Origin: a virus
Taxonomy: Duplodnaviria > Heunggongvirae > Uroviricota > Caudoviricetes
IMG/VR virus record: IMGVR_UViG_2713896899_000007
Location: 7,041 to 71,040 of that record
Reading direction: 5' to 3' (one strand)
Length of the DNA: 64,000 nt
Made by a program: the position numbers and the translations under genes. The notes beneath the pieces were generated by a model. It did no database searches. It saw only the letters and a list, made by a program, of their open reading frames with translations, and was not told the origin of the DNA. Position 1 is the stretch's first letter. Every line of letters starts with the position of its first letter. Below, piece by piece: positions 15,502 to 57,924 of the stretch.

Positions 15502-17076
15502 TCACTCGTTCTCTTGAGTAGATGAGTCCCCATTCCCTCGGGGTTGATCTTGCCCGCTTTCTTGGGCTGCACCACGATCATAAGTAAGTGCTGACTTATT
15601 TTCAAGGGTATTTAGATCATTTTTTGGCGGAAAATTCAAGAGATCTTTATCAAATTCCTTTTTCATCGCCTCAGTAATGTTCGGGAAAATCTTCTCAATA
15701 AGCATTTCCATCTGGTGACGACGTACAGAGTCCGGTGCCTGAAGTAATGACAGTTTCTCGGCAACAGAAAATTCATCTGTAAGGCCACGAATATCGAAAC
15801 TTTCTGGATACGCTATTAAAGAGTGGTCTTCGTCCAGATCTACCCCCATCCATTTCGCAACCAGTAGCATGATTTGGCGTTCAGCCCTTTCCAGACGCTC
15901 TGCTTTTGTGACAAGCAAGCTATTTACACGCTGGAAGTCATACATTTTTGCGGCACCAGATGAGTTATCGATTCCCTGTGCGTTGTCCTGCTTCGTTCGC
16001 TCACCAGCTACACCAACTGAATGGTAGATTTCGTTAATCACCGTCTTAATCGTAGTGATGATCATCTGAGCTTGTTTCGGGTCTGGTGACAGATAAAACG
16101 GCTGGTTTCCACCTTCAGAATCGTAGGTGAAGACTCGCTTTGTGCCCATTTCAAGCACTTTAGTGTGGTTTTCATCACCAGGTAAAAGCGACTGTACCGG
16201 TATAGCCAACTGGCTAAATGTCTGATCCTGAATAATGGCATCAAGGTTTGACAGATAGTTTGCAACCGCACGATCAAGATAAGCGATATCATCGATCAAC
16301 GATGGGCTGAAATACGGTGATTCACTTTCTCCAATACAATCAACAGGAAACACAGGAACTACGCCGAGATTATGCTCACCGCTATCCTCTAAAATAACTT
16401 TTGCCTGACGGCGACCTGCTCCACCAGCGCCCTTCTTCACTTCCTCACGGAACAGATACCACTCGTTTTGTGTCCACAGACGATAACGTTGGTATTCCTG
16501 ACCTGTAGAAGTAAAAGGATCTGCGTCATCACGAGCGACTTCCACAATTAACGCCCACAACATATTCCCGTCGTCGTCCCATGCCACATCCAGCATTTGC
16601 TGAGGTGAAATCCAGTAGGCGTAGGCGCGAGCATCTTTCTTTTTCTCGTCAGCTACTGACTCAACATCACCACTCATCGTGCTATCGACAACAACCCATA
16701 TGCGACCGTAAATAGACGACTGCAAATCAATAGCGGCCATAAATGAGTCAATAGAGGCATTCTGGCGAGTCGCACGTTTCCAGAAATTGCGGATCTGCTC
16801 TGGTGCCTCTTCGATATTTCTATGAATGTCTTCTTTAAAGAGATATTTGTTGATGAGGTTTACCACCTCACGAGTGTGGTTGAAGCGATAAGCACGCTCA
16901 ACTCGCTCCTTAAACTCCTGATCTCCCTCTTTAAAGTAACGAAAGATATTGTCTGTAAACCAACCACGCCCGCCAGCGTAAGTGCTGGCGAGGAAGTCCC
17001 AATGTTCTTTTTTCTTTTCGTATTCCGGGTGGCGTCGCGCCACCAGATCCTTAATTTGTTTGTCGTTCAATTCCAT
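15502..17076 (-). CDS. Portal protein
   Basis: 524-aa ORF immediately downstream of large terminase. Confidence 0.6.
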   Translation of the reverse strand: MELNDKQIKDLVARRHPEYEKKKEHWDFLASTYAGGRGWFTDNIFRYFKEGDQEFKERVERAYRFNHTREVVNLINKYLFKEDIHRNIEEAPEQIRNFWKRATRQNASIDSFMAAIDLQSSIYGRIWVVVDSTMSGDVESVADEKKKDARAYAYWISPQQMLDVAWDDDGNMLWALIVEVARDDADPFTSTGQEYQRYRLWTQNEWYLFREEVKKGAGGAGRRQAKVILEDSGEHNLGVVPVFPVDCIGESESPYFSPSLIDDIAYLDRAVANYLSNLDAIIQDQTFSQLAIPVQSLLPGDENHTKVLEMGTKRVFTYDSEGGNQPFYLSPDPKQAQMIITTIKTVINEIYHSVGVAGERTKQDNAQGIDNSSGAAKMYDFQRVNSLLVTKAERLERAERQIMLLVAKWMGVDLDEDHSLIAYPESFDIRGLTDEFSVAEKLSLLQAPDSVRRHQMEMLIEKIFPNITEAMKKEFDKDLLNFPPKNDLNTLENKSALTYDRGAAQESGQDQPRGNGDSSTQENE

Positions 17077-17102: not shown

Positions 17103-18359
17103 CTATCTAGAACCACCAAGAATAACACGGTTTTTGACTGGATACCTACGATGTACTGGATAGCCCAATGCGTCTGCACTATGCTCAATGCCACCTGTCT
17201 TATCCATATCTCGTGTTCCAGGCTTGTAGATGACTTTTTCCAGTGAATCAATCAAATGCTTGCACTTCGGATCGATATACAACCGGATATCTCCAGATGC
17301 GGTCATCAGCATTCGGTTAACAGCATTAACACGATCCGCAATTGGCGGGTGCTTTTTCGAATAATCGACACGTAAGAATCCCTTCTCTTTGAAAATGTCG
17401 ACGTCAGACTCCCCGCGAGCATGTTGGCGATAAGCACCTGCCGGATCTGGAAATACCGTTATCTGTGATTTCCAGCGCCAGAAGCGTCTCTCAAGCTCAT
17501 CACAAACCTCTGCCGTGTTAGAGGAAAAGAGCACCAATTCATCAATTGCCCATAGCTCACCATTTGGCTGAGGTTGCAAAATTACTGAAGACATCGGGTC
17601 AATGTTGAAGTCCTGCCCTACCCATATAGGCAACCGAGGGTTGAACTGAAGCGGTTTTACATGCACGTTACGATCGAACGGGTAGTAAACGCGCCCGGAC
17701 ATGTTCTCAAAGCTCGCCAGGTACTCCTGAGCGAACGATTTCGGGTCCATATCGTTCTTAGCAGCTTCAATTTCCGCCGTAGGTACAAACGGAGAATCGG
17801 CAGTTACAAACTGCCAGCTCTTCCACTGTCCCTTTCTTTGCAGCTCTACGTTCTGGCCTATAGTCCACAGTTTGTGAAATTCCGAGAAGCCTTTTGGCGT
17901 ACCAATGATCAGTGCACCGCCGCGTGTCGATGAAAGAGTAGGTCGTAACACCTTGTACCAGGTGTCAGCCTTCATATCCTGAAATTCATCAAGCACTACA
18001 AAATGCAACGCTACGCCGCGCAGAGTGTCAGGCTTATCAGCACCTTTGAGGGCGATCTCCGAACCGTTCTTCAACACGATTGTCATCGTGGTGTCGTTCT
18101 TTTTCCTAACCCACTTACGAGGCAGAACTTCCTGTAGATCGTCCCACAAAATCTGGCGAGCCATCTGGTAAGTAGGAGCGACATACCAGACTCTTTGCTT
18201 TTTTTCCTTTGCCGCCGCACGAATAATAGTGGAGATCGACAACCGGGATTTTCCCCAGCGTCGACCAGCACAAACAACTTTAAATCGATGCGGAGACTGG
18301 AAGACTTTCATCTGTCCAGAATGCAGTTGCACAAGACTGAGCGAGGACGGGATTGCCAT
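17103..18359 (-). CDS. Terminase large subunit
   Basis: Walker A-like VCAGRRWGKS, Walker B-like FVVLDEF, C-terminal nuclease-like region; follows small terminase. Confidence 0.8.
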   Translation of the reverse strand: MAIPSSLSLVQLHSGQMKVFQSPHRFKVVCAGRRWGKSRLSISTIIRAAAKEKKQRVWYVAPTYQMARQILWDDLQEVLPRKWVRKKNDTTMTIVLKNGSEIALKGADKPDTLRGVALHFVVLDEFQDMKADTWYKVLRPTLSSTRGGALIIGTPKGFSEFHKLWTIGQNVELQRKGQWKSWQFVTADSPFVPTAEIEAAKNDMDPKSFAQEYLASFENMSGRVYYPFDRNVHVKPLQFNPRLPIWVGQDFNIDPMSSVILQPQPNGELWAIDELVLFSSNTAEVCDELERRFWRWKSQITVFPDPAGAYRQHARGESDVDIFKEKGFLRVDYSKKHPPIADRVNAVNRMLMTASGDIRLYIDPKCKHLIDSLEKVIYKPGTRDMDKTGGIEHSADALGYPVHRRYPVKNRVILGGSR

Positions 18360-18991
18360 TATTCGTCCTCCCCTTCACTTCCATCATCTGTCGCATCAAA
18401 TTCGCTTAGAGCTTCTTCTTCCAACGTCTCAAGCAATTCGTCATCGATGATTTCAGGCTCGTCGTCTTCCTGACGTAATTTCGCCACCTGGGAAGGCGTA
18501 AGCTCACCAAATACCAGGTTCGGAATTTCTTCCTCGTCATTTTCAGCATGATCCATGCCCAATGCTTTGGACGAAACTTCAAAGCATTTTGCAAGGGTAT
18601 TACTGGCTCTCTGTAAGCTCTTGAGAGAATCCTCAATCGCCCCTAAAGGCTTACCATCACGTTTGGCCGTAGTGACTTCGACCATCACCATCTGCCCCAA
18701 CGCATACGCCCAGCCGTCATAACGTGTACGACGTTCTTCTATCTTTTCCGCACGGGCTTTAGCGCGAAGCTCTGCGTCAGATTTAAGAGACTCACGAACC
18801 ATCTTCCCAACAGAGTCCGCGCCTTTCTCTAATCCTCGCTTTTTGAAATGTCTGGAGAGTGTTTCACGACGAATGCCGTACTCTTCCTCCAGCTTTGAGA
18901 GTGTATATTCGCCTGACGTCCATTTGGCTTCAGCTTCGGCCCACTCCGCTGGTGTCAGGCGAGTTTTTACCTCGTCTTTTTCGACCGTCAT
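18359..18991 (-). CDS. Terminase small subunit (putative)
   Basis: 210 aa, N-terminal HTH-like segment, very acidic C-terminus, first gene of late operon; ATG at 18989-18991. Confidence 0.55.
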   Translation of the reverse strand: MTVEKDEVKTRLTPAEWAEAEAKWTSGEYTLSKLEEEYGIRRETLSRHFKKRGLEKGADSVGKMVRESLKSDAELRAKARAEKIEERRTRYDGWAYALGQMVMVEVTTAKRDGKPLGAIEDSLKSLQRASNTLAKCFEVSSKALGMDHAENDEEEIPNLVFGELTPSQVAKLRQEDDEPEIIDDELLETLEEEALSEFDATDDGSEGEDE

Positions 18992-19086
18992 AGATCCCTC
19001 TAAAACACACAGAGCGCGTCCATGCGCTCTAAAACAACTTGTTTACTGCGTATGCTAACCAACTTGTTTTCTGGGGTGTTTAATTA

Positions 19087-19185
19087 GGTCTGGGCATGTC
19101 TTACTAAGCCTGCTTCCGTATATATTTAATAAGTTACTTATTATTTATATATACGGAAGCAGGTCTTTAAATAAGCTCCCAGACC
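19087..19185. repeat. Long palindromic element, copy 1
   Basis: Inner 16-bp perfect inverted repeat CCTGCTTCCGTATATA (19109-19124 / 19148-19163) with 23-nt AT-rich loop; outer arms GGTCTGGG / CCCAGACC. Confidence 0.7.
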
Positions 19186-19187
19186 GA

Positions 19188-19454
19188 TTACATCACCAGT
19201 AACTTCGCTTTGGCTCGACCTAAAGTGGTTAACCCAAGAGTCCGGCGGTGATAGCGATTGTCACTGCGTTGGCGCGTATGCCCTTTCTCCACCAGCCCCT
19301 TTTTTATCAGAGCGCGAATTGAGAACTGAATACTTTGCTTGGTTGTCTTGTACGGCAAAACTTCAAGCAATTCGTCCAGATCAAGTAGATGACCTCGCTC
19401 ATAACCGAGATTGAGCGTTTTGATGATGTCCTTTTGTTTATCGGTTAACGTCAT
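19188..19454 (-). CDS. Small winged-helix-like DNA-binding protein (putative regulator)
   Basis: 88 aa, basic; predicted helix-turn-helix region. Confidence 0.35.
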   Translation of the reverse strand: MTLTDKQKDIIKTLNLGYERGHLLDLDELLEVLPYKTTKQSIQFSIRALIKKGLVEKGHTRQRSDNRYHRRTLGLTTLGRAKAKLLVM

Positions 19455-19463
19455 GGCAAATCC

Positions 19464-20354
19464 TTATGCCGGTAAAGCAATTTCTAACGGTTTATCCAAA
19501 GGTTGTTTGTCGAATGCCAGCAGTGGCAGCGTGTCAGGCAGTCGACGACCAAAGTCAGGGTTTCGATACACACCATACAACGGAGACGTAAAGCTCAGGT
19601 TGTGAATGTCCTTGAGCAGCTTCACAATGCTGGCCTCGTCCACCAGACTGTCGGCAATGTCCTGAATCGTCGTGCCACGATTCCGCCCAGCTTTTGCCAG
19701 GGAACTGTTCTTGTGGTAGTCCGCCACCAGATCACGCAGTGCACGGCGACGACGAGACTCGCTCATTGCGAACAACTCTTTGACGATCGCCTCGTTATCA
19801 CCCGGGTCAGAACGGAAATGGCGCTGGAATACACGCAGTGCACTTTCATAGCTCTTCGGTCGCTCAGGGCGGATGAACTTAAACCCCGCTTTCATGGCGA
19901 AGGGATTGTATTTGCTCATCGAGGACTGGATCTCAATGATTGGCCGGTCATGCATCCTGCTAACCAGGTTAATCATTCGATAAGAGACGCCTACGCCACG
20001 ATACTGAGTATCCACAACTGAGCGACTGATCACCGCAAAGTTGTTATTCACGTACCGACCCCAGTACTGGTTAGCCACGGTGGTATTAGTGGTTGGTTTC
20101 AACTTAGGAAACATGCGGTGGCGAGGTGCCAACAGTAGTTTCGGGTAAGCCATAACCACGACGCCCACCAGACGGTCATCAAGTTCGCAGCGATAGTAAG
20201 TTGGCGCGAAAGGTTTGCCGTCTGTTTTGTAGTGAAGCGACTTAAGAGCGTGCCAGTCCTCTACAGTTCCCTTTGTAACAGTCATTCGCTCCAGAAAGTC
20301 CAGATGACGCGGAAACTCTTCAGGGCGGTAGCGTTTAATGATGATGTCCGTCAT
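19464..20354 (-). CDS. GNAT-fold acetyltransferase-like protein with C-terminal extension
   Basis: GNAT motif A-like VVDTQYRGVGVSYRMINLV and motif B-like NPFAMKAGFKFI; 296 aa. Confidence 0.5.
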   Translation of the reverse strand: MTDIIIKRYRPEEFPRHLDFLERMTVTKGTVEDWHALKSLHYKTDGKPFAPTYYRCELDDRLVGVVVMAYPKLLLAPRHRMFPKLKPTTNTTVANQYWGRYVNNNFAVISRSVVDTQYRGVGVSYRMINLVSRMHDRPIIEIQSSMSKYNPFAMKAGFKFIRPERPKSYESALRVFQRHFRSDPGDNEAIVKELFAMSESRRRRALRDLVADYHKNSSLAKAGRNRGTTIQDIADSLVDEASIVKLLKDIHNLSFTSPLYGVYRNPDFGRRLPDTLPLLAFDKQPLDKPLEIALPA

Positions 20355-21016
20355 GAATGGACCTCATCGTGACTACCATTGTGATATTCCACCTTCACGC
20401 GTTCTTTGTAGTGCTTGGTGATCTGCATATCCGGGCGCAGCGCGTTCTTCAGGTCTTCGTGAGTCGTCGCCACCATTACCGTCGCACCAACCTTTCGAGC
20501 GGCACGCTGGAGGTTAGACGCCACAACCTGAGCGGTTACACGGTCGAGAACAGCGCCGAACTCGTCAGCAGCCCACACTTTAGCGTCTGACTCAATCAGT
20601 TTGGCAATCTTGAGACGATATTTCTGGCCGTCTGACATTTCAGAAGGCTTGCGAACAAACAGATATGCATCGTTCAGACCAGCCATAGATAACAACCCAA
20701 GCGCATCACTGGTCGTTTTGCCCAACTGATCGATGACGTTAACCTCATTATCGAAGGTAAAATCATCGATGGAGGCTACAGACAGCCCTTCATCCTTCAT
20801 CTGTCGTTGCAACTCGCGCAGCACAACGGATTTGCCGGAACCGGATTGGCCGGTGATGTACACCACATCGCCCTGCTTCACTTCCAGCTCCAGATTGTCG
20901 TAAAGCGTCCACTCTTTTTCGTCCAGGCCAAGCCCGAACGACTCAGCGATTTCCAATGTGCGCGTGGTTTTATTTACGCGTGTCTGAAACGATACGTTGA
21001 TGATGTATTTGCTCAT
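20351..21016 (-). CDS. Soluble ABC-type ATPase
   Basis: Walker A GQSGSGKS, ABC signature-like SDGQKYRL, Walker B VWAADEF, H-loop TTHE; no transmembrane domain; stop overlaps GNAT start. Confidence 0.65.
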   Translation of the reverse strand: MSKYIINVSFQTRVNKTTRTLEIAESFGLGLDEKEWTLYDNLELEVKQGDVVYITGQSGSGKSVVLRELQRQMKDEGLSVASIDDFTFDNEVNVIDQLGKTTSDALGLLSMAGLNDAYLFVRKPSEMSDGQKYRLKIAKLIESDAKVWAADEFGAVLDRVTAQVVASNLQRAARKVGATVMVATTHEDLKNALRPDMQITKHYKERVKVEYHNGSHDEVHS

Positions 21017-21681
21017 GCAGCCATCTCCCCGGAAGAGATCTTCTCCGCATATGCCACAAATGCGTCTACCCCGCTTTCTCCCGTCATTTCTTCCATGTGG
21101 GCAAGCAAATCACCAACAACAATGGCAGAGCCAGCAGGGAGCGTTTTAAAGCCCAATACGTCGACAACACGTACTTCTTCCGCTGCAACTTCACGACTGA
21201 TCTCGGTGTGTTCATCCTTCTGTCGTTTAGTTTCTTCGCCAAGATCGATAACTAGCGAGTCGGTGTCCATTTCTTCTGTCATACTGCCAACGAGAACATT
21301 CAACTCACGCTCTTCAAAGCCGAAAACCTCGATATCGTCCAGAACAAGCGACTCAAGCTCTTTCTGTAGCTTAATTGCATCGTAATCAATGCTGGCAAGT
21401 CGGTTATCTTCAAGGCGCTTCGCACGAACCTCGTCATCACTGAGATCATCGCGAACAATAACCGGTACGCGCTCAAGTCCAGCAAAAATTGCAGCCTCAC
21501 GGCGGCCGTGGCCAGTAATAATTACGTCGTTCTTATCGACCGTAATTGGCTGGTCAAATCCGCGCTTTTTAATGGCTGCGGCTAGATCTCGGATCTGCTG
21601 TTCATCATGCTTTTTGGCATTCATCTCATAGGGAATAAGATCTGCCGGGTCGCGATATACGATTTCAAACTTTTTGGTCAT
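21013..21681 (-). CDS. ParB/Srx-fold nuclease-domain protein 1
   Basis: ParB box-like ITGHGRREAAIFAGLERVPV; start set to ATG 21679-21681 (MTKKFEIVYR), which overlaps the stop of the upstream paralog. Confidence 0.6.
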   Translation of the reverse strand: MTKKFEIVYRDPADLIPYEMNAKKHDEQQIRDLAAAIKKRGFDQPITVDKNDVIITGHGRREAAIFAGLERVPVIVRDDLSDDEVRAKRLEDNRLASIDYDAIKLQKELESLVLDDIEVFGFEERELNVLVGSMTEEMDTDSLVIDLGEETKRQKDEHTEISREVAAEEVRVVDVLGFKTLPAGSAIVVGDLLAHMEEMTGESGVDAFVAYAEKISSGEMAA

Positions 21682-22361
21682 TACATACGCTCCTTGTAGT
21701 AGTCGACCAGCCACACCAGAGCCTCACCAGCGTTCTCCATTTCATTACCGGTGTTAATAGCCTGCTCTTTGATGATGTTTTTTATGGTTTCTGCAACACG
21801 ATCTGACGCATCGAAAGTTACTTTGAAGCGCATGGTCTGATGTTCCGCACCCACACGTTCGGTTTTCTCCCGTTTGTCGGTATCGACAGGCTCATCACTA
21901 CCACGAGACAACGCCTCCAGTGCTTCAAGGTCGATTGCCGCCTCTTTTGCTAAAACCATCGAGATTTCGTCGTCATACGGGGCGATTTCAGACAGTTGAT
22001 AGTCAAGTTCTGACTGAATTTCTTCAATGAAGCGTTGCAATGCGATTTGGTCGTCTTCACCGTATCGCTCGTTGTCCACCAGTGACATCTGTTTTGCCAC
22101 GACATCGCTAATTTTGCCCACAGAAAGCACCGGAACCGTTGAAATTCCTTGCTCAATAGCAGCACGCCAGCGATGTTCGCCGCCGAGGATTTCAAAAAAT
22201 CCATCTTCAAGTTCACGAGCCAAAATTGGCTTAAAAAAGCCCAATTTTTCGATAGAACCTTTCAGTTTTTCAAAATTCTGCGCACCAACCGAATTGGTGT
22301 TCCAGGTATTCGGGCGAAGGTTGGCAACATCAACCTGCAAAATCGTGATTTTTACATCCAT
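21681..22361 (-). CDS. ParB/Srx-fold nuclease-domain protein 2
   Basis: ILGGEHRWRAAIEQGISTVPVL ParB box; track start at 22379 is a GTG, the ATG at 22359-22361 is preferred. Confidence 0.55.
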   Translation of the reverse strand: MDVKITILQVDVANLRPNTWNTNSVGAQNFEKLKGSIEKLGFFKPILARELEDGFFEILGGEHRWRAAIEQGISTVPVLSVGKISDVVAKQMSLVDNERYGEDDQIALQRFIEEIQSELDYQLSEIAPYDDEISMVLAKEAAIDLEALEALSRGSDEPVDTDKREKTERVGAEHQTMRFKVTFDASDRVAETIKNIIKEQAINTGNEMENAGEALVWLVDYYKERM

Positions 22362-22443
22362 TTTATTGCTACAATCCACTAAGTAACTGCTTACTTATTA
22401 TAATAGCCAAATAACATACAAAAGGCACTAAGGAAAGAGGTTT

Positions 22444-24003
22444 ATGACTGTTCGGATTGTATCTAACGCAGTTAATGCGCTTATTTCTGGCGCAGATGAC
22501 AAGGTAAAGCAACTGGTGCAGCAAATGTTGAGCTACGAAGTCGAGACTGGCGACTGGAAGGGCACAAGCACGATGTTCAACTGGAGTAAAAACTCGTTCC
22601 CTGCTGGCTTTGCCAAGCCTGTAGCGGCGAACTTGAACAAGGCGGGCATCAAATGTGTTCATATCCGCAAAGACAAAGCCCCGGCGCTTGGTAAACCAAA
22701 TCCGGCGGTTAACCCATTCCCATACAATCCTGATTATGCGTATCAGGATCAGACTGTGGAAACACTGGTTCGAGAGGGAATGATGATTGCGCAGATCGCT
22801 ACTGGTGGCGGGAAATCTAACGTTGCCTGCAAAGCAGCTGCACGTATCGGTCGAATGACATTATTTTTAACAACCCGCTCTGTTCTGATGTTTCAAATGG
22901 CCGAAAACTTCCAGAGATCCATCGACTACCGCGCCGAAAATGGCGAACCGTGGTTAAAAGACCAAAAGGTTGGAGTCATTGGCTCGGGTGAGTTCCAGGT
23001 ATCACGACATATCAACGTCGCTACAGTTCAAACTCTTGCAAGTTTCCTCGAAGAACCACCACGCGATGCAACACCAGATAAGAAAAGCTACCACCTCAAA
23101 CGTCGGGAGTTGGTGAAACGCTTCCTTTCAAGTGTCTCTCTTCTTATTCTGGAAGAGGCGCATGAGTCTTCAGGCTCAAATTTCTATGACATCGCCAGAT
23201 TATGTGTGAACGCAGACTATCGTCTGGCGCTTACAGCCACGCCGTTCATGAAGGATTCGACGGAAGCCAACATGCGCCTGATGGCGGTGGCCGGGCGAAT
23301 TGAAATTAAAGTCACAGAAAAGTACCTGATTGATCGAGGCATTCTGGCAAAGCCGTACTTCCTTTATCATAAAGTTGCCTACAAACCAGACGAGGCCAGA
23401 ATCAAGGCAGAACTTGCCAACAAACACCTCAATTTTAGAGTAGGTATGAGTACTGCCTACCAAAAGGCTTATCAGTTGGGGATCGTGTATAATTTGGGAC
23501 GTAACGAGGCCATTGTTCGCGAAGCATTGCTCTATAAGCAACATTCTCTCAATTGTATGACTCTGGTTCGCCTTAAACGCCACGGGCAAATCCTGATGGA
23601 AATGATGAAAGAGTCCGGCCTTAGAGTTGACTTCATCTATGGGGAATCTAACCAGGCGACAAGGCAAGCAAAGCTGAACAGTTTAGCGTCTGGAGAAATA
23701 GATGTTTTAATAGGCTCGACTATTCTGGATGTCGGTGTTGATGTGCCAAGCGTTGGTGCGGTCATTCTTGCTGGTGGTGGGAAAGCAGAAGTTGAAATGA
23801 GGCAGCGTGTCGGTCGTGGCTTACGAGCCAAGAAGAATCAGGCAAACGTGTGTTTTATCACTGATTTCATTGACACTAGCAACAAATACCTGTTGTCTCA
23901 CTCTTATGAGCGAAAACACATCATCGACACCACACCTGGCTTTGCAGAAGGTGTATTGCCTATTGATGGCGCATTCGATTTTGGAGTTCTGAAACGAGAT
24001 TAG
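22444..24003 (+). CDS. Superfamily II DNA/RNA helicase
   Basis: Motif I ATGGGKS, motif II ILEEAHE, motif III TATP, motif VI QRVGRGLR. Confidence 0.8.
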   Translation: MTVRIVSNAVNALISGADDKVKQLVQQMLSYEVETGDWKGTSTMFNWSKNSFPAGFAKPVAANLNKAGIKCVHIRKDKAPALGKPNPAVNPFPYNPDYAYQDQTVETLVREGMMIAQIATGGGKSNVACKAAARIGRMTLFLTTRSVLMFQMAENFQRSIDYRAENGEPWLKDQKVGVIGSGEFQVSRHINVATVQTLASFLEEPPRDATPDKKSYHLKRRELVKRFLSSVSLLILEEAHESSGSNFYDIARLCVNADYRLALTATPFMKDSTEANMRLMAVAGRIEIKVTEKYLIDRGILAKPYFLYHKVAYKPDEARIKAELANKHLNFRVGMSTAYQKAYQLGIVYNLGRNEAIVREALLYKQHSLNCMTLVRLKRHGQILMEMMKESGLRVDFIYGESNQATRQAKLNSLASGEIDVLIGSTILDVGVDVPSVGAVILAGGGKAEVEMRQRVGRGLRAKKNQANVCFITDFIDTSNKYLLSHSYERKHIIDTTPGFAEGVLPIDGAFDFGVLKRD

Positions 24004-31614: not shown

Positions 31615-31926
31615 AATAACGCACAGGCGAAAAAGGATTTTATTCCGGTGAATGTGGTTTTGGCAGTGAGTTTTCAGGTTCAGTACCGAGTACACTTTTT
31701 ACATTATTCTGATTTAGTGGCCGAAGATGGCTGGTGGGCAGAATAATCCTCTCCCCGAAAACCTACTGAAATCGATTGTGACCCGCTGGCTGTCTGGCAC
31801 AATTACGCTGTAGCTGGGCATTCAGAGGGAATCCAGCGGTAAGTTCGCCTGCACGTGAGCGCCTCTCTTCTTACCGCACATTACAGGTGGGTAGCCGCAA
31901 CTCTCCCTCACGCTATACCGGTACGC

Positions 31927-32060
31927 CACCGTTCCTGAACCGGCATCGAGCCTTTTCCCGAAATCCACACAGGCAACTCTACCGTTTCCCTGAAAATCCC
32001 CAGCCGTTCCCCGAAGGCAACCCAGCCGTTTCTGTAGCGGGATGCAGCCTTTCCCTGTAT
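31927..32060. repeat. Second array of CCGTTTCCC-type repeats (6 copies)
   Basis: ACCGTTCCTGAA, GCCTTTTCCCGAAATCC, ACCGTTTCCCTGAAAATCC, AGCCGTTCCCCGAAGG, AGCCGTTTCTG, AGCCTTTCCCTG. Confidence 0.6.
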
Positions 32061-32169
32061 GGACCGAAGGCTGACCGTAGGGGTGTTACGGGGGATAAAA
32101 TCAGGAGTTGAATAAATACGAAAAAGGAGGCGACACCCCTACTTCCCTCTCCACTTATACATACCAGGC

Positions 32170-32950
32170 TTCTTCGCTATACATGTTGTGTTTTCTTCGT
32201 GTTTTATCTGTCTCAACCTCTCTATAGGCGTTAATGCTCACTCCTACCAGAACGTTCTATACGGCGACTATTTCTGTTGGTGGATTAGGTGTGTTGTTTT
32301 CTCTGTCGGTGTATGTGGTTTCGTTCGTTTTGCGGTGGTTCTTCTATGGGGTGTTCTCGTCGTTTTGGTGATTGTTCTTCTCCGTATATGGAGTAATGGC
32401 AGGTGGGCGATTGCTTTCGTTATTGTGTTTGAGTTGTTTGTCTGGAGTGTGTGAAAGGCTTTTGTAGTTATTCGTGTATTGGGTAATGGCGTTTCCCGTG
32501 ATTGTTATGTTTCGTGTCTTTTGGGATTGAGAGAAACCTTGCGGTTACAGGCTTCGTTGGGGTTTCAGTGATTCTGGTGTTTCTTCGCTGTTTGGGGAAT
32601 GGCGTGTCGTGGGTATCGCGCGTGTGAATGTTTTCGGATTGCCTGTGAAAGTTAGGTTGGTTATCCGGTAGCCTGGGAAGAAGAGGTGGGTCTTTTCGGT
32701 AGCCTGCCATAAAGAGGTTGGTTGTTTTTGGGAATGGCATGTGTGTTATTTAGTTGTTTTGTTATGCCTGAAAATAAGTTGTTTATATGGTTGTGTAACG
32801 CAACGGGAGCGATTTTGAGCGTGTGTTTTTGTTGGTAGTGTGTTGAGTCGTCTGTGGTGAAAATTGGACGCTGTGGAGCTGTCTGCTGCGTAGGATTACG
32901 GGTATAAGAAGTGATGTGTGAAAACGTCAATTTTTTAGACCAAATCGGGA
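32170..32950. other. ORF-poor, strongly G+T-skewed repeat-rich region (candidate origin, centromere-like site or noncoding RNA locus)
   Basis: Top strand about 80-85 percent G+T in spot counts; at least 10 same-orientation GTTGTTTT(C) half-sites; four GGnAATGGC repeats at about 100-bp spacing (about 32395, 32485, 32598, 32730); only low-complexity ORFs. Confidence 0.5.
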
Positions 32951-34366: not shown

Positions 34367-34506
34367 CAGAAAACAAATTGTTTTAGGGGCTGAGTAAATC
34401 AGAAGGGATTGCGTCTATATGAAAATGCCCAGCAATACGCTGGGCATTGTGAAGAATGGTTGTTTAGTTACTTAACTTGGTGGCCTGGTTTAGCACCAGC
34501 ATCCGG
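34367..34506. repeat. metG 3'-end repeat copy 2 (authentic metG terminus and terminator)
   Basis: Direct repeat of 33497-33636, offset 870 bp. Confidence 0.8.
34420..34448 (-). terminator. metG rho-independent terminator (within repeat copy 2)
   Basis: AATGCCCAGC...GCTGGGCATT stem followed by UUUU on minus strand, 20 bp after metG stop. Confidence 0.6.
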
Positions 34507-36501
34507 GCTTAACAGGAAGATATCTTTCCCGCCGGGGCCAGCAGCCATCACCATGCCTTCGGAGATACCGAAGCGCATTTTACGCGGAGCCAGGTTAGCC
34601 ACCATAATTGTGTGACGACCAATCAGTGCCTGTGGGTCTGGATAAGCAGAACGGATGCCTGAGAAGACATTACGCTTTTCACCACCGAGATCCAGTGTCA
34701 GGCGCAACAGTTTGTCAGAACCTTCAACAAACTCCGCGTTTTCAATCAGCGCCACACGCAGGTCAACTTTGGCGAAGTCGTCAAAGGTGATGGTTTCCTG
34801 AATCGGGTCGTCAGCCAGTGGGCCAGTAACTGGCGCGGCAGTAGCTTTCACTTCTTCTTTGGATGCTTCCACCAGTGCTTCCACCTGTTTCATATCGATA
34901 CGGTTATACAGTGCCTTGAACGGATTCACTTTATGGCCCAGCAGCGGTTGCTGGATACCATCCCAGGTCAGTTCTGTATTCAGGAATGCTTCTGCACGTT
35001 CAGTCAGTTTCGGCAGTACCGGTTTCAGATACGTCATCAGCACGCGGAACAGGTTAATGCCCATAGAGCAAATCGCCTGCAGATCTGCATCGCGACCTTC
35101 CTGCTTCGCCACCACCCACGGAGCCTGTTCATCGACATAGCGGTTAGCCAGGTCAGCCAATGCCATGATTTCACGGATAGCTTTACCAAATTCGCGGCTT
35201 TCCCATGCTTCGCCAATCACTTCAGCGGCATCAGTAAAGGTTTTGTACAGTTGCGGGTCAGCCAGTTCGCTTGCCAGCACGCCGTCAAAACGCTTGTTGA
35301 TAAAGCCTGCATTACGGGAGGCCAGGTTAACCACTTTGTTAACAATATCGGCATTCACTCGCTGAACGAAATCCTCCAGGTTGAGATCGATATCATCAAT
35401 GCGCGAAGAGAGTTTCGCAGTGTAGTAGTAACGCAGGCTGTCAGCGTCAAAATGATTCAGCCAGGTGCTGGCTTTAATAAAGGTGCCGCGAGACTTGGAC
35501 ATCTTCGCACCGTTCACCGTCACATAGCCATGAACAAACAGGTTGGTCGGCTTGCGGAAGTTGCTGCCTTCCAGCATGGCAGGCCAGAACAGACTGTGGA
35601 AGTAAACGATATCTTTACCGATGAAGTGGTACAGCTCGGCGGTGGAGTCTTTCTTCCAGTATTCATCGAAGCTGGTGGTATCGCCGCGCTTGTCGCACAG
35701 ATTCTTGAAGGAACCCATGTAGCCAATCGGTGCGTCCAGCCAGACGTAGAAATATTTACCCGGCGCGTTCGGAATTTCAAAACCGAAGTAAGGTGCGTCG
35801 CGGGAGATATCCCACTGTTGCAGACCAGATTCAAACCACTCCTGCATTTTGTTTGCCACCTGCTCCTGCAACGCACCGCTGCGGGTCCATGCCTGCAACA
35901 TTTCGCTGAAAGAGGGCAGATCAAAGAAGAAGTGTTCAGAATCACGCATTACCGGGGTAGCACCAGAAACCACCGATTTCGGCTCGATCAGTTCAGTCGG
36001 GCTGTAGGTCGCGCCACAAACTTCACAGTTATCGCCGTATTGATCTGGCGCTTTACATTTCGGGCAGGTGCCTTTCACAAAACGATCCGGCAGGAACATG
36101 CCTTTTTCCGGGTCGTACAACTGAGAGATAGTGCGGTTTTTAATAAAACCGTTCTCTTTCAGGCGAGTATAAATAAGCTCAGACAGCTGGCGGTTCTCTT
36201 CGCTGTGCGTCGAGTGATAGTTGTCATAGCTGATGTTAAAGCCTGCGAAATCAGTCTGGTGTTCCTGACTCATTTCGCCAATCATCTGCTCCGGTGTGAT
36301 ACCAAGTTGCTGTGCTTTCAGCATGATCGGCGTACCGTGGGCATCGTCGGCACAGATGAAATTAACCTCGTGGCCGCGCATTCGCTGGTAACGAACCCAG
36401 ACATCAGCCTGGATGTGCTCCAGCATATGGCCGAGGTGGATTGAGCCGTTAGCGTACGGCAGCGCGCACGTCACCAGAATTTTCTTCGCGACTTGGGTCA
36501 T
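34468..36501 (-). CDS. metG: Methionine--tRNA ligase
   Basis: 677 aa from ATG 36499-36501 ([26 protein letters not shown]...KMSKS...[10 protein letters not shown]); near-identical to E. coli MetG over full length as I recall it; the track ORF is extended upstream. Confidence 0.95.
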
Positions 36502-36658
36502 AGTAGGCATTACTTCTTTGTAGTGAAAAGGGGCTTGATAGTAACAAAATGGCCTTATGTCTGCCATGTGATAACAGCATTTCTCATAAATGATTAAATG
36601 TCGTAGCTGGAGTACACTACAAGGCGACAATTGCGCAAATTAAAATAAAGGAGACGGG

Positions 36659-37759
36659 ATGAGCGAGTCCAAATCGCCGGATGCCCTGAGAGCAATGGTA
36701 GCCGGTACGCTGGCTAATTTTCAGCACCCAACCCTGAAACACAACCTGACTACGCTTAAAGCGTTACACCATGTTGCGTTGATGGATGACACACTGCATG
36801 TCGAACTAATCATGCCTTTCGTGTGGAATAAGCCTTTTGAAGACCTGAAAGAGCAATGTAGTGGTGATCTGCTCCGTATCACTGGCGCAAAGGCTATTGA
36901 CTGGAAGCTGTCGTACAACATTGCCACGCTTAAGCGCGTCAAAAACCAACCAGGCATTAATGGTGTTAAGAATATTATCGCCGTAAGCTCAGGCAAGGGC
37001 GGTGTAGGCAAATCGTCCACAGCAGTAAACTTGGCACTGGCGTTGGCTGCTGAAGGTGCGAAAGTTGGTATTTTGGATGCCGATATCTACGGGCCATCAA
37101 TACCAACCATGCTGGGCGCGGAAAACCAACGTCCAACCTCACCGGACGGTACTCACATGGCACCTATCATGTCTCATGGCCTGGCAACCAATTCAATTGG
37201 CTATCTGGTCACCGACGACAATGCAATGGTGTGGCGTGGACCGATGGCCAGCAAGGCGCTGATGCAGATGTTGCAGGAAACACTGTGGCCTGATCTGGAC
37301 TATCTCGTTCTCGATATGCCGCCGGGCACTGGTGATATTCAGTTGACGCTGGCGCAGAACATTCCTGTAACTGGTGCGGTTGTGGTAACTACGCCGCAAG
37401 ACATCGCGCTGATCGATGCGAAGAAAGGCATTGTGATGTTCGAAAAAGTCGAAGTGCCAGTACTGGGTATCGTTGAAAACATGAGTGTGCATATTTGCAG
37501 TAACTGCGGTCATCACGAGCCAATTTTTGGCACCGGTGGCGCACAGAAACTGGCCGAGAAATACAACACGCAGTTGTTAGGCCAAATGCCACTTCATATC
37601 TCTCTTCGTGAAGATCTGGATAACGGAACACCAACCGTTATTAGTCGTCCAGATAGTGAATTTACGGCTATTTATCGTGACCTCGCAGATCGCGTTGCTG
37701 CCCAAATGTATTGGCAAGGTGAAGTAATACCTGGCGAAATCGCATTCCGCGCAGTGTGA
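36659..37759 (+). CDS. apbC: Fe-S cluster carrier ATPase Mrp/ApbC
   Basis: 366 aa, SGKGGVGKS P-loop, CxxC motif; near-identical to E. coli Mrp; divergent from metG as in Escherichia chromosomes. Confidence 0.95.
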   Translation: MSESKSPDALRAMVAGTLANFQHPTLKHNLTTLKALHHVALMDDTLHVELIMPFVWNKPFEDLKEQCSGDLLRITGAKAIDWKLSYNIATLKRVKNQPGINGVKNIIAVSSGKGGVGKSSTAVNLALALAAEGAKVGILDADIYGPSIPTMLGAENQRPTSPDGTHMAPIMSHGLATNSIGYLVTDDNAMVWRGPMASKALMQMLQETLWPDLDYLVLDMPPGTGDIQLTLAQNIPVTGAVVVTTPQDIALIDAKKGIVMFEKVEVPVLGIVENMSVHICSNCGHHEPIFGTGGAQKLAEKYNTQLLGQMPLHISLREDLDNGTPTVISRPDSEFTAIYRDLADRVAAQMYWQGEVIPGEIAFRAV

Positions 37760-50233: not shown

Positions 50234-50827
50234 CTAAGCAGCCTTCTTTGATGGTCTTTTTTTCCTGACCACATTCGCAGGATCATACCCTCCCAGACTT
50301 TTCATTACGTCCAAAGGGATCTTGCTTATAGAGTGCCCAGCGTCCTGACAGAATCCTCGAAAAACAACGAGCATACTGCCACCGGGGTTGATGTTTACTT
50401 CTACCTGACCCAAATTGACGTCAGGCTCGACAAACGCTACGCGGCCACCAGACAGAATAATCGTCTCATTCGCATACTCTGTTGCACGCTCATACCACTT
50501 TGTATCGAGGGATTGAGGAATTAGCATCACTGTTGTAACTCCGCGAGCCTGCTCACGTATAGCAGCATCAATCCAGGGGGAGATTTTGGAGTAGGGTGGA
50601 TTGAGGAAGGCAATTGTACCTGGCTGTCCCCATTCAGATTTCAAAGCATCGCGCTCAACGCCTATGAAATTAGGCAGCTTTGCATTGTCCTTGTTGCAGG
50701 CAACGTCAACATCAAATGTCACTCCAAGATAACGTTGAATGGCAGAAAACAGCCAATCAGGTGTTCTCCAGAGGTCACGAAGAGAGTTGTCGCGCTTTCG
50801 CTGTTTGATTTTTTCGGCTGCAATCAT
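50234..50827 (-). CDS. Phage-type DNA N6-adenine methyltransferase (Dam family)
   Basis: LWRTPDWLF, FLNPPYS catalytic motif, 197 aa. Confidence 0.65.
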   Translation of the reverse strand: MIAAEKIKQRKRDNSLRDLWRTPDWLFSAIQRYLGVTFDVDVACNKDNAKLPNFIGVERDALKSEWGQPGTIAFLNPPYSKISPWIDAAIREQARGVTTVMLIPQSLDTKWYERATEYANETIILSGGRVAFVEPDVNLGQVEVNINPGGSMLVVFRGFCQDAGHSISKIPLDVMKSLGGYDPANVVRKKRPSKKAA

Positions 50828-53027: not shown

Positions 53028-53672
53028 CTAATGAACGGTTACTCGGCCACAGAACCGGTTTTCTATCTTTTCTACAGCGTTATCTAGCATTCTCATCACT
53101 GATCTGGCTCTTGCTTCAACCGTGCGATATCGGTTGGAAACGACGAAGGTTTGCAGATCTCCCCTTTGCGGATGCAGGTGAATTTTTGTCAGTTCCCCGC
53201 ACATCAACGCATCAATACGAGCGACATACAGACGGTCTAATGATGCTCGTTGTGATCGCAAGTAATCTCGCTCTGAGAGAGCGACTCCCGGGCGTAAGCC
53301 AGCAATGGCGTTAAAGTTTGAAATAGCAGTTTTGTGGCAAAACTTTTCGATATCGAGGGCTAACTCAATACACCGATCTTCATTTGTATGGCCGACCAAA
53401 TCCAACGTGTAGGCCATAACATCAGCAGGTGTGCGATCGATAACAAAGCCTTCAACACCACGCGTAAGTAGCTCTATATGCTTTGCTATTTCCATTTGAA
53501 TCTGAAGCCGCTCATATAGAGGCATAGACTCACCTACTCGAACACCGAGGCGGCTCATCAAACTTCCGACACCAGCATCCACGTAAGGGATTCCGTAATG
53601 TTTGTCGATATATTTAGCCAGGGTTGTTTTCCCACTGCCCTGAGCACCAGTGATCCCAATCCGGTAATCCAT
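53028..53672 (-). CDS. P-loop nucleotide kinase (deoxynucleoside monophosphate kinase-like)
   Basis: Walker A GITGAQGSGKTT at N-terminus; 214 aa; sits in nucleotide-metabolism block. Confidence 0.5.
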   Translation of the reverse strand: MDYRIGITGAQGSGKTTLAKYIDKHYGIPYVDAGVGSLMSRLGVRVGESMPLYERLQIQMEIAKHIELLTRGVEGFVIDRTPADVMAYTLDLVGHTNEDRCIELALDIEKFCHKTAISNFNAIAGLRPGVALSERDYLRSQRASLDRLYVARIDALMCGELTKIHLHPQRGDLQTFVVSNRYRTVEARARSVMRMLDNAVEKIENRFCGRVTVH

Positions 53673-54148
53673 TACGACCTTCTGTATACGATCTGCGAAA
53701 AGCCAGGCTCTTCCTCGCTGGCTCGTTGGGTATAAGCTGTTTCAACAGGCACAAAGCCTAAGTTACGCATCATGCTTGCCGGGAAGAATGCATCGGCGTT
53801 TGGTACATCAACGCCGATGTGGGAGAGCCAAATCTCTTCAACATGCGGCATGAATAGCGAGTAAATTTGTTCCCCGCCAATCACCCACACAGGCTCTGGT
53901 AATCGCAACACATCATCCACACCAGCAGGGTAGAATCCATTTGGTACAAAGCCATGAGAGCGCGTCAAAACGAGGTTATGACGCTCTGGAAGAGGGCGTT
54001 TGAGACTTTCCATCGTTTTACGCCCCATAACGACAGTGGCGTTTTTGGTGAGTCTCTTAAATAGCTTCAGATCGGTAGAACAACGCCAGGGCAGTTCGTT
54101 CGCTATGCCGATCTCATAGTTACGGCCAACAGCAGCTATCATCTTCAT
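53672..54148 (-). CDS. folA: Dihydrofolate reductase
   Basis: MIAAVGRNYEIG...LPWR...VVMGRKT...VIGGEQIY pattern typical of DHFR; 158 aa. Confidence 0.85.
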   Translation of the reverse strand: MKMIAAVGRNYEIGIANELPWRCSTDLKLFKRLTKNATVVMGRKTMESLKRPLPERHNLVLTRSHGFVPNGFYPAGVDDVLRLPEPVWVIGGEQIYSLFMPHVEEIWLSHIGVDVPNADAFFPASMMRNLGFVPVETAYTQRASEEEPGFSQIVYRRS

Positions 54149-54559: not shown

Positions 54560-55690
54560 TCACACCGCCACTGGAACCTTGATCCACGGTAGAGGGTCAT
54601 AGCCAAGAATCAGAATATCGTCCCATTTGAAATCATCCAGCTCAGACCATTCATGAGGGAAAATAACGACCGGATCTGAATGCTCTGGAGCCTGTCGTTT
54701 CATTAGCTCACACACACTTTCCATGTGGTTATTGTATAAATGCACGTCAAAGCCAAAATGCACAAATGCACCGGCCATGTGACCCGTAATCTTCGCGAGA
54801 AAATGAGTGAGAATGCCATAGCCAGCAATATTGAATGGCATACCAACAAAAGTGTCTACGCTACGCTGTACGAGGCAGGAGTTGAGGATGCGTTTGGGGA
54901 TTCCAAGTTCATCCAGTTCAGTTTCAGTAACACTGCCGTCCATCTCCAGATCGTATAGCATCTTGGTGTAGATAGACTCGTAACCGAGGCGACTGTGTTG
55001 AAGACCAATGTCTGTTGCCATCGTTAAACGAGTTTCAAAATCAAGCTCACGACTCCACAAAGAGAAGGCAAAGTGGCAAGGTGGCAGTTTCATATCCTCA
55101 AGCTCGCCTACGTTCCATGCGTTAAGCATGATGCGACGATCGGTAGGGTTCGTGCGCAGTGTATCGACAATACGCTGTAGCTGATCGATTTCACGGGACA
55201 GCACTACGCGATCTTCACTGATACCCAGGTATCCCTCGACTTTGTACCCGCGTTCACGGAAAGTATCGATCTTGCTCAGATATTCACTATGGCTCACGAT
55301 GCGGGTATCTTCCCATCGACGCCACTGCTTACCGTAAACCGGCCCCAAATCGCCATTCTCATCGGCCCATGCATCCCAAATTTTAACGCCGTTATCCTTG
55401 AGAAATTGGATGTTGCCCGTGCCTTTCAGATACCACTCAAGTTCGACAAGTAGTGGCTTAAGATTTACCGCCTTTCCAGAAATAAGCGGCACAGTCCCAC
55501 CAGTAAGCATGTAGTAAGAGGGAACGTAGCAGGTGCTTAAAGTACCAGTGCCTGTGCGATCATCAGCCTGCACGCCGCTTTTAAGCACCGTCTCAATAAC
55601 TTTTGCATACGATGCGTTTGTTACCTGACCGTTCGTATGCTCACGATTCAAAAGGAGTGACACAAAAACCTCACAAAGATAAGTAACCAC
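54560..55690 (-). CDS. thyA: Thymidylate synthase with two large insertions
   Basis: DRTGTGTLS, DENGDLGPVYGKQWR, catalytic PPCH, FNIAGY, HLYNNH, GYDPLPWIKVPVAV all aligned to ThyA; about 35-aa and 50-aa insertions relative to E. coli ThyA. Confidence 0.8.
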   Translation of the reverse strand: MVTYLCEVFVSLLLNREHTNGQVTNASYAKVIETVLKSGVQADDRTGTGTLSTCYVPSYYMLTGGTVPLISGKAVNLKPLLVELEWYLKGTGNIQFLKDNGVKIWDAWADENGDLGPVYGKQWRRWEDTRIVSHSEYLSKIDTFRERGYKVEGYLGISEDRVVLSREIDQLQRIVDTLRTNPTDRRIMLNAWNVGELEDMKLPPCHFAFSLWSRELDFETRLTMATDIGLQHSRLGYESIYTKMLYDLEMDGSVTETELDELGIPKRILNSCLVQRSVDTFVGMPFNIAGYGILTHFLAKITGHMAGAFVHFGFDVHLYNNHMESVCELMKRQAPEHSDPVVIFPHEWSELDDFKWDDILILGYDPLPWIKVPVAV

Positions 55691-56781: not shown

Positions 56782-57924
56782 TTACAGGTCTGCAAACTGG
56801 CTTAGAGAAGCCTTATCCACAGTAGAATCGATCTGACCTACCAGATATGTGCTTTGCTCTGCCTCTTGTGGTGCAATTTGCAGTGTGTCGGTTAACAACC
56901 ACTTGTTCATCCAGACCAGCGGATCGGTGGTAACCTCTGGAAATAAAGCCTTCAGGCCAAGACGATTCATAGCCAGATTGGTGCGGTATTTTACATAGGT
57001 CTTCAGAATATCCGCGTTTAAACCAATCATCGAACCGTCTTTGAAGAGATAGTCTGCCCAGTTCATTTCTTGTTCGGCGACTGATTTCATGGTGTCGTAA
57101 ATGACGTTTTCTTCATCAGCAGCAATCTCTTTCCACAATAAACCTTCGCGACCGGTACGCATGAAGCGGATCATGCGTTCAGTTCCTTCGCAATGCAGAG
57201 CTTCATCACGGGCAATAAAGCGCATAATTTTGGTGTTACCCTCAAGCAACTTCCGTTCGCCAAAGGCAAACGTACATGCAAAACTTACATAGAAACGGAT
57301 CGCCTCAAGCGCATTAATGGACACCAACGTGCGGAAAAGCTGACGGTGCAAAGGGTATGGCTCCCAGCCATATTCATTTACGTACAGACGTTCAAACTCC
57401 TTCTCACCTAACGACTGGCGCTCGCAGGTCATCCCATAAAGCCTGTCATATTCAGCAGAGATACTGATCGCTCGGTTGATGATTTCTTCATCCGTAACAA
57501 TACCGTCAAAAACAATGCTCGGATCGTCCACCATGCCACGAATAATGTGGGTGTAGCTGCGGCTATGGATAGTCTCAGAGAAAGACCATGTTTCAACCCA
57601 CGTTTCCAGTTCAGGAATAGAGATAAGCGGCAGCAACGTTGCATTTGGGCTACGTCCCTGAACTGAATCGAGTAACGTTTGATAACGGAGATTGCTCAGA
57701 AAAATGTGACGTTCGTGGTCCCGCAGCTTCGTGTTGAAGTCGATACGATCGCTCGAAATATCAACTTCTTCCGGCCGCCAGAAGAAAGACAATTGACGTT
57801 CAATCAACTTTTCAAAATCACGGTATTTTTGCTGATCGTAACGTGCCACGTTGACAGATTGTCCGAGGAACATAGGCTCTTTGGTTGCATCATTAGCACC
57901 CAAACGGAACGTTGAATATGACAT
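56782..57924 (-). CDS. nrdB: Ribonucleotide reductase class Ia beta subunit
   Basis: [34 protein letters not shown]...FFWRPEEVD closely parallels E. coli NrdB; start set to ATG 57922-57924. Confidence 0.9.

Follow-up and report, generated by a model that had tools for sequence, protein, structure and literature searches.

We describe here five consecutive minus-strand genes at 19188-22379 of a 64 kb segment of the IMG/VR virus record IMGVR_UViG_2713896899_000007 (hereafter the window, to which coordinates are relative), which encode two ParB-like proteins, a soluble ABC-type ATPase, a GNAT-fold protein and a small winged helix-turn-helix (wHTH) protein. In our opinion, which we hold with a probability of about 0.5, this module is a phage 'ParB-terminase' DNA-modification system, which would use ATP to put an acyl or aminoacyl group on the phage DNA, with help from the ParB-like proteins and in coupling with packaging. 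We base this on the domain identities of the proteins, on their intact motifs, on synteny, on gene fusions and on linkage to the large terminase (TerL). Judged by sequence comparison, the module is best filed with the computationally predicted ParB-terminase / ABC-GNAT systems, and neither with partition nor with defence systems.

The module and its conservation

According to a listing of open reading frames (ORFs), which agrees with the RefSeq annotation of a 100% identical plasmid (NZ_CP048306.1), the five genes are contiguous and lie between a putative small terminase gene (TerS) and a divergent SF2 helicase gene. This is where the original prediction, which was made from the sequence alone, had placed them, and its domain calls also proved right: two ParB/Srx paralogs, a soluble ABC ATPase, a GNAT protein with an extension and a small wHTH protein. 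In the direction of transcription the order is ParB-like 1 (21681-22379; 232 aa from a GTG codon, or 226 aa from the ATG at 22361 that RefSeq uses as the start), ParB-like 2 (21013-21681; 222 aa, its start being M12 of the longest ORF rather than 21714, according to the PHROG profile and RefSeq), the ABC-type ATPase (20351-21016; 221 aa), the GNAT-fold acyltransferase-like protein (19464-20354; 296 aa) and the winged-helix-like protein (19188-19454; 88 aa). The genes for ParB-like 1 and ParB-like 2 overlap by 1 nt, those for ParB-like 2 and the ATPase by 4 nt, and those for the ATPase and the GNAT protein also by 4 nt; gaps of 9 nt and 196 nt then separate GNAT from wHTH and wHTH from TerS. 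The five genes are predicted to be translationally coupled. On the other side, an intergenic region of 64-82 nt separates the module from the helicase gene (22444-24003, plus strand; ResIII, DEAD and Helicase_C at E~1e-14; phrog_16), from which it is transcribed divergently. Promoter-like and terminator-like sites in 18300-22700 are no more frequent than in shuffled sequences, and hence we infer the operon boundaries.

The 3.2-kb block is 100% identical to its counterpart in the E. coli plasmid p009_B (NZ_CP048306.1), 99% identical in the phage-plasmid Cyrano of E. coli LF82 and 85% identical in Salmonella phage SSU5, and it matches 772 PLSDB plasmids of Klebsiella, Escherichia, Enterobacter, Yersinia and Salmonella, which are mostly non-mobilizable. 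Therefore the window belongs to an SSU5-supergroup phage-plasmid. A homologue search with the ABC protein returned near-identical plasmid copies only. A tblastn search with the GNAT protein reached 105-122 kb phages that infect Pseudomonas (nickie), Rhizobium (RHEph10), Stenotrophomonas and Xanthomonas, at ~34-43% identity and with the same neighbourhood annotated around the gene.

We then compared 85 related loci, namely 80 divergent IMG/VR contigs, found with a divergent alignment, and the phages nickie, RHEph10, BUCTxx99, JGB6 and SSU5; every ORF was labelled by jackhmmer seeded from the proteins of the window. The exact order of divergent helicase, ParB1, ParB2, ABC, GNAT, wHTH, TerS, TerL and portal (the last of these nine genes at 15502-17076 on the minus strand of the window, conserved in position and named 'phage portal protein' in RefSeq) is present in 55 loci, and nearly all the remaining ones have the same order interrupted by the end of a contig. 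The few irregular loci have duplicate or locally swapped labels, and the genes of JGB6 are fragmented; small additional ORFs are occasionally interposed between module genes. Among the related loci examined, none lacks a member of the module or has its genes apart. The helicase is divergent from ParB1 in all the complete ones, and in every locus the gene just before TerL is TerS-like. Compared with the window, median identity is 54% for the ABC protein, 41% for the GNAT protein, 35% for each ParB-like protein and 25% for the wHTH protein, and the lowest identity is ~36-50% for ABC and GNAT and ~23% for the ParB-like proteins. Because the gene order is the same across the 85 loci, the five-gene arrangement is far beyond chance, and the module genes are core genes of this clade of viruses rather than an accessory island. 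It was conceivable at the outset that the ATPase and GNAT genes would turn out to be unlinked in relatives. They are always linked there, and often fused.

The ABC and GNAT genes as a split version of a fused protein

The ABC-type ATPase (ABC_tran E=3.3e-13, phrog_293) has no membrane domain in Pfam or PHROGs, and its Walker A (GQSGSGK62S), signature (S128-D-G-Q), Walker B (D151-E152) and H-loop histidine (H186) are kept in 75 clade members. In the GNAT protein, which has a core at ~20-165 and a helical C-terminal domain at ~165-296, motifs A and B are conserved in the clade; it has no match in NCBIfam or PADLOC. The 88-aa protein matches phrog_900 (E=2e-45), and all its matches of wHTH type are weak (LexA_DNA_bind at E=0.07, a CARF-wHTH at E=4.5e-5 and Lrs14/Sta1 at E~0.003). 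It is specific to the clade, always lies between the GNAT gene and TerS, and is present in this slot in every related locus that extends that far.

An exhaustive profile search with the GNAT alignment gave 876 cluster representatives. Most of them are proteins of 450-500 aa in which the match begins near residue 200 and ABC_tran lies directly N-terminal to it (Pfam); only ~15 clusters are stand-alone GNAT proteins. The phage pair and the fused proteins have motifs in common over the full length, namely FGLG, GD.VYITG.SGSGKS, ELSDGQKYR, DEF..LDR.TA, ATTH.DL, FHY, R.SRVV..P.YRG.G, YNPF..AG and Y..W.NP, the last of which shows that the C-terminal extension is also common to the phage GNAT and the fused proteins. 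The fused family carries the label 'ABC-type ATPase fused to a predicted acetyltransferase domain' (COG2401/MK0520). Compared with it, the ABC motifs are present in the window, and the GNAT follows the ABC protein and is homologous over its full length; the single polypeptide is replaced by two genes. Thus, as far as sequence can tell, the ABC and GNAT genes of the window are a split version of the fused ABC-GNAT protein, and the split pair would work like the fused form.

A third partner can join the same polypeptide. Three archaeal ORFs of ~640 aa are ParB-ABC-GNAT triple fusions with the ParB domain at the N-terminus (phmmer with ParB-like 1, E=5e-11 to 4e-7), and the same triple fusion is found in four independent database representatives. 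The Pfam ParB_N matches of the triple fusions are borderline or below threshold (E=2e-5 at 24.9 bits, where the cut-off is 26.3 bits, and E=0.002).

Other odd architectures occur among the ABC-GNAT relatives, in seven representatives. The variants include a family-B DNA polymerase (PolB) in front of ABC-GNAT, a TFIIB repeat behind it, an intein within the ABC domain, and proteins of ~900 aa in which an N-terminal P-loop ATPase (a weak Pox_A32 match, E=0.016) and a PD-(D/E)xK-like segment precede ABC-GNAT.

PHROGs places the ABC and GNAT families in the category 'moron / host takeover', solely through 'ABC transporter' names. The filing counts, to that extent, for a reading in which the module would serve host takeover or anti-defence by acylating a host protein, a tRNA or a small molecule, with the ParB-like and ABC proteins as regulators that sense nucleoside triphosphates (NTPs). 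ABC proteins of the transporter nucleotide-binding-domain type include ribosome- and tRNA-binding factors, which can be counted on the same side. Further, host proteins are the targets of many GNATs of phages, for example of Rac of phiKMV, and charged tRNA is acetylated by GNAT toxins (PMC7824862, PMC13219725). However, counter-defence genes do not usually form a core set that keeps its position across deeply diverged genomes, as the module does, and PolB-ABC-GNAT fusion proteins exist. The fusion to ParB and the linkage to TerL (see below) point to DNA. PADLOC returned only generic matches (ParB-methyltransferase, ABC, P-loop) and no defined system, which also tells against the dedicated defence system that the original prediction had allowed for. 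Altogether, we consider host takeover improbable.

Linkage to the terminase genes in distant viruses

In the window, TerL (17103-18359, minus strand; Terminase_6N E=3e-9, Terminase_6C, phrog_2, phrog_10250) is the third gene downstream of the GNAT gene, after wHTH and TerS. The protein of 210 aa encoded directly upstream of it (18359-18991, minus strand, its stop codon overlapping the start of TerL) matches phrog_867, annotated 'DNA binding domain' (E=1e-100), and has no match in Pfam or NCBIfam; it is a putative small terminase, assigned by position only.

The same linkage was found far outside the clade. A genome scan with the fused family gave 486 confirmed loci, and our analysis covers 80 of these, nearly all archaeal (Bathyarchaeia, Nitrososphaeria, Methanocella). 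In 42 archaeal loci the gene immediately upstream of the fused ABC-GNAT gene on the same strand encodes a protein of 450-480 aa (46 loci if position -2 is included), and this neighbour is a large terminase (Terminase_6N E=2.5e-14). Of the 63 archaeal loci with at least 1.6 kb of upstream sequence, 39 have TerL one or two genes ahead of the fused gene. The TerL of the window matches 24 of the archaeal ones directly (phmmer, best E=6.5e-12), and the archaeal TerL genes are preceded by HK97-gp10-like, tape-measure-like and further tail genes. By their gene content these loci are tailed viruses or proviruses with ABC-GNAT beside TerL. Since ABC-GNAT lies upstream of TerS in bacterial viruses and downstream of TerL in archaeal ones, the association has survived rearrangement.

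Several Bathyarchaeia genomes or metagenome-assembled genomes (such as CAYRSV01, JAAZBP01 and JAOZHU01) have two or three separate fused ABC-GNAT loci beside tailed-virus genes, each in the order tail genes, small genes, TerL, ABC-GNAT and a variable region, which suggests multiple related proviruses in one genome.

Among isolated phages, tblastn with a fused protein matches 95 records. Gordonia phage Shatter encodes a ParB-like protein (g1), an ABC protein of ABC-GNAT type (g2, 401 aa), a methyltransferase (g3) and a terminase (g4); Leptospira phage LE3 has a ParB-like protein (gp16) and ABC-GNAT (gp17), with TerL four genes on; in the Streptococcus prophage Javan517 a ParB2-type gene is followed by ABC and then by TerL. 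It is the ParB2 type that most often accompanies ABC-GNAT genes in other phages, and the ParB2 profile matches the gene upstream of ABC in Javan517 (E=2.8e-39), Shatter (4.8e-11) and LE3 (1.7e-7). Hence the association of ParB, ABC-GNAT and terminase is recurrent in evolutionarily distant viruses.

Such linkage could also be expected if the module were a packaging accessory that does not modify DNA. The ParB-like proteins would then be nickases or organisers which, together with ABC-GNAT, act on the packaging machinery or on concatemer processing, for example by acylating terminase, portal or a host nucleoid protein, or by ATP-dependent recognition and preparation of a cos or pac site. The module does adjoin TerS and TerL in bacterial phages and TerL in archaeal proviruses, some relatives fuse the P-loop ATPase and PD-(D/E)xK-like segment mentioned above to ABC-GNAT, ParB/Srx domains can be NTP-regulated nickases (PMC5512222), and a conserved palindrome, possibly a cos site, lies at the junction of the module with terS. 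On the other hand, no characterised packaging system needs such factors. The ParB domains nearest to those of the window are those of ParB-methyltransferase fusions, and other ParB-terminase loci have bona fide DNA-modifying enzymes in the same slot, such as the methyltransferase of Shatter. Moreover, in the Tenacibaculum jumbo phage pT24, which our searches tie to the same ABC profile, the ABC gene is beside a helicase and not beside the terminase. We regard a purely packaging role as rather unlikely.

The palindrome itself (19075-19197, in the wHTH-TerS gap) has perfect 17-bp arms, CCTGCTTCCGTATATAT, at 19109-19125 and 19147-19163, with an AT-rich centre near 19135, and its DNA fold of -30.9 kcal/mol corresponds to z=-9.3. 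The arms are identical in SSU5 despite differing flanks; the inner edge of the right arm is precisely the point where the linear record of SSU5 is cut, and the record of Cyrano ends just as far from the wHTH gene. This gap has, in 41 of 71 distinct related loci, a perfect inverted repeat that is longer than any in 30 shuffles, with arms of up to 27 nt and a centre that is usually TATA-rich; the sequence of the repeats is not conserved between lineages. By comparison with cosN of phage lambda, a cos site would be expected to show two-fold symmetry and to lie just before terS. The palindrome is a candidate cos/pac site, but it may just as well serve to load the wHTH or ParB-like proteins.

Two AAACAACTTGTTT palindromes (19032-19048 and 19057-19073), 25 nt apart, lie between the long palindrome and the start of terS. 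Immediately upstream of the terS start codon stands a terminator-like hairpin, TAGAGCGC...GCGCTCTG, with a T-run after it (19031-19010, minus strand). These are consensus or pattern matches only; the pair and the hairpin together may control read-through from the module into the packaging genes.

The ParB-like proteins and the question of partition

ParB-like 1 (Pfam ParB_N E=3.3e-13, phrog_723 E=2e-79) begins with a ParB/Srx domain, which an acidic linker joins to a small, conserved domain at the C-terminus. Among PDB sequences it matches Spo0J (1vz0, E=2.6e-9), and its motifs GG.HR and DN.RyG.DD are kept across the clade. A convincing helix-turn-helix (HTH) seems to be absent from the segment that aligns to the HTH of Spo0J. 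ParB-like 2 (ParB_N E=1.5e-8, phrog_930 E=1e-112), with the conserved motif GHGRr, also matches phrog_498, a ParB-methylase family (E=5e-32), and is 33% identical to ParB-like 1 across the N-terminal 116 aa.

Two ParB-family proteins beside an ATPase, a palindrome nearby and the maintenance of a low-copy plasmid (the copy number of Cyrano is 5.5; PMC9928086) would fit a non-canonical partition system, one of the functions suggested by the original prediction, in which the ParB-like proteins bind a centromere and the ABC ATPase stands in for ParA. The ParB N-terminal domain family, PF02195, is indeed common to the module and to ParABS, and there are matches to the structures of Spo0J and Noc. 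However, these matches are confined to the N-terminal domain, the TIGR00180 (parB_part) score of 43 bits is below the cut-off of 58.45, and the Noc cut-off is also far from reached. ParABS has an adjacent ParA, a ParB that bears a HTH, and a context of replication and maintenance, whereas the ATPase of the module is of ABC type and its context is packaging. We found no adjacent cognate ParA, no ParB with a central HTH scoring as parB_part and no ParA-interaction context. The module is present beside packaging genes in isolated phages of Pseudomonas, Rhizobium, Stenotrophomonas and Xanthomonas, in phages of Gordonia, Leptospira and Streptococcus and in archaeal proviruses, and a partition role would leave the GNAT partner unexplained. 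A ParA/MinD/MipZ-type ATPase is encoded elsewhere on the same plasmid, ~30 kb off. The genes listed as expressed in the Cyrano lysogen include a ParA-like ('septum site-determining') gene, but not the module genes CYRAN_119-123 (PMC9928086). The claim stands that neither a standard ParA/ParB system nor standard packaging genes are arranged in this way, but partition itself has become very improbable.

The distant ATPase, of 222 aa, is encoded together with a following ORF of 117 aa at 31877-32904 of p009_B, outside the window. In appearance this is a partition pair of type Ib, and it is probably what actually partitions the phage-plasmid.

The case for DNA modification

Of the functions proposed from the sequence alone, the evidence speaks most for DNA modification, which gained ground through the fusions, the recurrent loci in which ParB, ABC-GNAT and terminase follow each other, published predictions and experimental precedents; partition and dedicated defence lost it. 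After replication, the two ParB-like proteins, with putatively NTP-binding ParB/Srx N-terminal domains and no obvious HTH, would act as DNA-associated adaptors or activators of the enzyme. The ABC ATPase would make an ATP-sandwich dimer, the ATP cycle of which could engage DNA or present a base. The GNAT protein would take an acyl group off acyl-CoA, or else, like Mom, an aminoacyl group off charged tRNA, and put it on a nucleobase of double-stranded phage DNA, which we infer to be the acceptor. The small wHTH protein might provide regulation or site recognition, possibly at the palindrome next to terS. Finally, the adjacent terminase would package the modified DNA, and the modification would shield it from host nucleases or mark it for packaging.

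Both ParB-terminase (ParB-Tls) loci and an ABC ATPase-GNAT 'nucleobase acylation' system were predicted computationally by Iyer, Zhang, Burroughs and Aravind (NAR 2013, as cited in PMC7824862 and PMC4738411). There are precedents for the separate parts of such a system. The activation of a post-replicative thymine dioxygenase has been shown experimentally to need a phage ParB-like protein that lacks a DNA-binding domain, and around such enzymes ParB and terminase domains rank with the commonest neighbours (PMC13229309). Mom of phage Mu is a GNAT-fold protein which aminoacylates adenine in double-stranded DNA using Gly-tRNA (PMC13219725), and the DNA transglycosylase DpdA has a ParB-like ATPase, DpdB, as its partner (PMC12839542). 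Given the experimental results on 5mYOX with ParB, on Mom and on DpdB, the prediction of nucleobase acylation becomes more credible. Further, fusions of ParB to an acetyltransferase came to light in a survey of the ParB-CTPase fold, and GTP was bound by one of them (PMC12704722). Our literature search returned no experimental work on the ABC-GNAT (COG2401/MK0520) family, including that of Bathyarchaeia viruses.

Several points weigh against this reading. No modified base is reported for SSU5-like phages in the literature that we searched. Anti-restriction modification genes are usually accessory and variable, while the module is a core gene set. Adjacency to the terminase may in part reflect inherited genome architecture and not a common function, and the substrates of GNAT proteins are not predictable from structure. 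In the Spo0J alignment the box-I arginine of ParB-like 1 seems to be replaced, which makes NTP binding by this protein uncertain. Lastly, ParB is not an obligatory partner, since the majority of archaeal loci have ABC-GNAT and no ParB at all.

The closest known relatives of the module are the ParB-Tls and ABC-GNAT systems in the form in which the work of Iyer et al. is cited: there, too, ParB/Srx genes lie beside the large terminase with a putative modifying enzyme between them, and GNAT is coupled to an ABC ATPase, the family including pT24. The window has the ParB/Srx genes (two ParB_N proteins) and their physical linkage to TerL, and the slot of the modifying enzyme is occupied by ABC and GNAT with intact motifs, for which a DNA substrate is predicted. 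The differences are that ABC and GNAT are separate, coupled genes, that ParB is present as two paralogs and is accompanied by a wHTH protein specific to the clade and by a divergent helicase, and that the block is a core feature of a whole clade, made up of ~105-120 kb siphoviruses and SSU5-type phage-plasmids.

Other systems are similar in part. The similarity of the GNAT protein to Mom (PDB 8bv8) is at the level of the fold only, with ~10% identity, and no Mom-type match was found in Pfam or PHROGs at the thresholds used; Mom acts alone, without an ABC ATPase or ParB, whereas the GNAT protein of the window has the 130-aa C-terminal domain. In the pair of 5mYOX and ParB (PMC13229309), a short phage ParB-like protein, with an NTP-binding N-terminal domain, a C-terminal domain and no HTH, likewise stands beside a post-replicative DNA-modifying enzyme, often with terminase genes, but that enzyme is an Fe/2-oxoglutarate dioxygenase with one ParB and not ABC-GNAT with two. 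DpdB likewise partners a base-modifying enzyme, in the 7-deazaguanine modification of DNA, but DpdA/DpdB is a bacterial defence-type system which works by transglycosylation, without GNAT or ABC ATPase (PMC12839542). By its description, the RNA cytidine acetyltransferase TmcA/Kre33 (mentioned in PMC13219725) is comparable as well, being an NTPase coupled to a GNAT which acetylates the exocyclic amine of a nucleobase in folded nucleic acid.

Relative to the literature accessible to us, what is new is the version with split genes, two ParB-like proteins and a wHTH protein, its place as an invariant core block of a large clade of phages and phage-plasmids, the ParB-ABC-GNAT triple fusions, the adjacency to TerL in archaeal proviruses and the structurally conserved palindrome at the terS junction. 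As to the comparison with TmcA/Kre33, its ATPase is helicase-like and not of ABC type, its substrate is tRNA or rRNA, and it is a cellular enzyme without a link to ParB or terminase.

Other genes of the element deserve a brief description. At 34468-37759 there are metG (methionyl-tRNA synthetase) and apbC/mrp, chromosome-type genes which are divergent as they are on the E. coli chromosome and which have an HD-domain gene and an S24 peptidase gene at their flanks. This segment occurs in ~208 plasmid records, mostly of E. coli SSU5-like elements, and thus in a subset of the family only. We considered metG as a source of the charged-tRNA donor and set it aside, since it is present in only 208 records as against the 772 that have the module. 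According to RefSeq (identical plasmid), the element also encodes a Dam-like N6-adenine methyltransferase (50234-50827), dihydrofolate reductase (53672-54148), thymidylate synthase (54560-55690) and class Ia ribonucleotide reductase (56782-60345); hence it has a second, conventional DNA-modification function and its own supply of deoxynucleotides.

Implications

A wider reading, which we put forward only tentatively, is that SSU5/pHCM2/pMT1-type phage-plasmids, the ~110 kb siphovirus clade and many archaeal tailed viruses carry an undetected acyl or aminoacyl modification of nucleobases, made by an ATP-driven ABC-GNAT enzyme that is guided or activated by ParB and coordinated with the terminase at a palindromic cos-like site. 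If this is true, it would add a new class of enzymes to the machinery of DNA hypermodification, and an ABC ATPase would be seen in a new role. The linkage to terminase in bacterial as well as archaeal viruses suggests an ancient coupling of genome marking and packaging.

The module is present on hundreds of sequenced enterobacterial plasmids and is fixed in a large clade of phages. If it does modify DNA, this would represent a new modification chemistry and the first function for COG2401 ABC-GNAT proteins, as well as a second experimentally tractable case of ParB-like cofactors for DNA-modifying enzymes. It would also bear on how these phage-plasmids evade restriction while they spread resistance genes.

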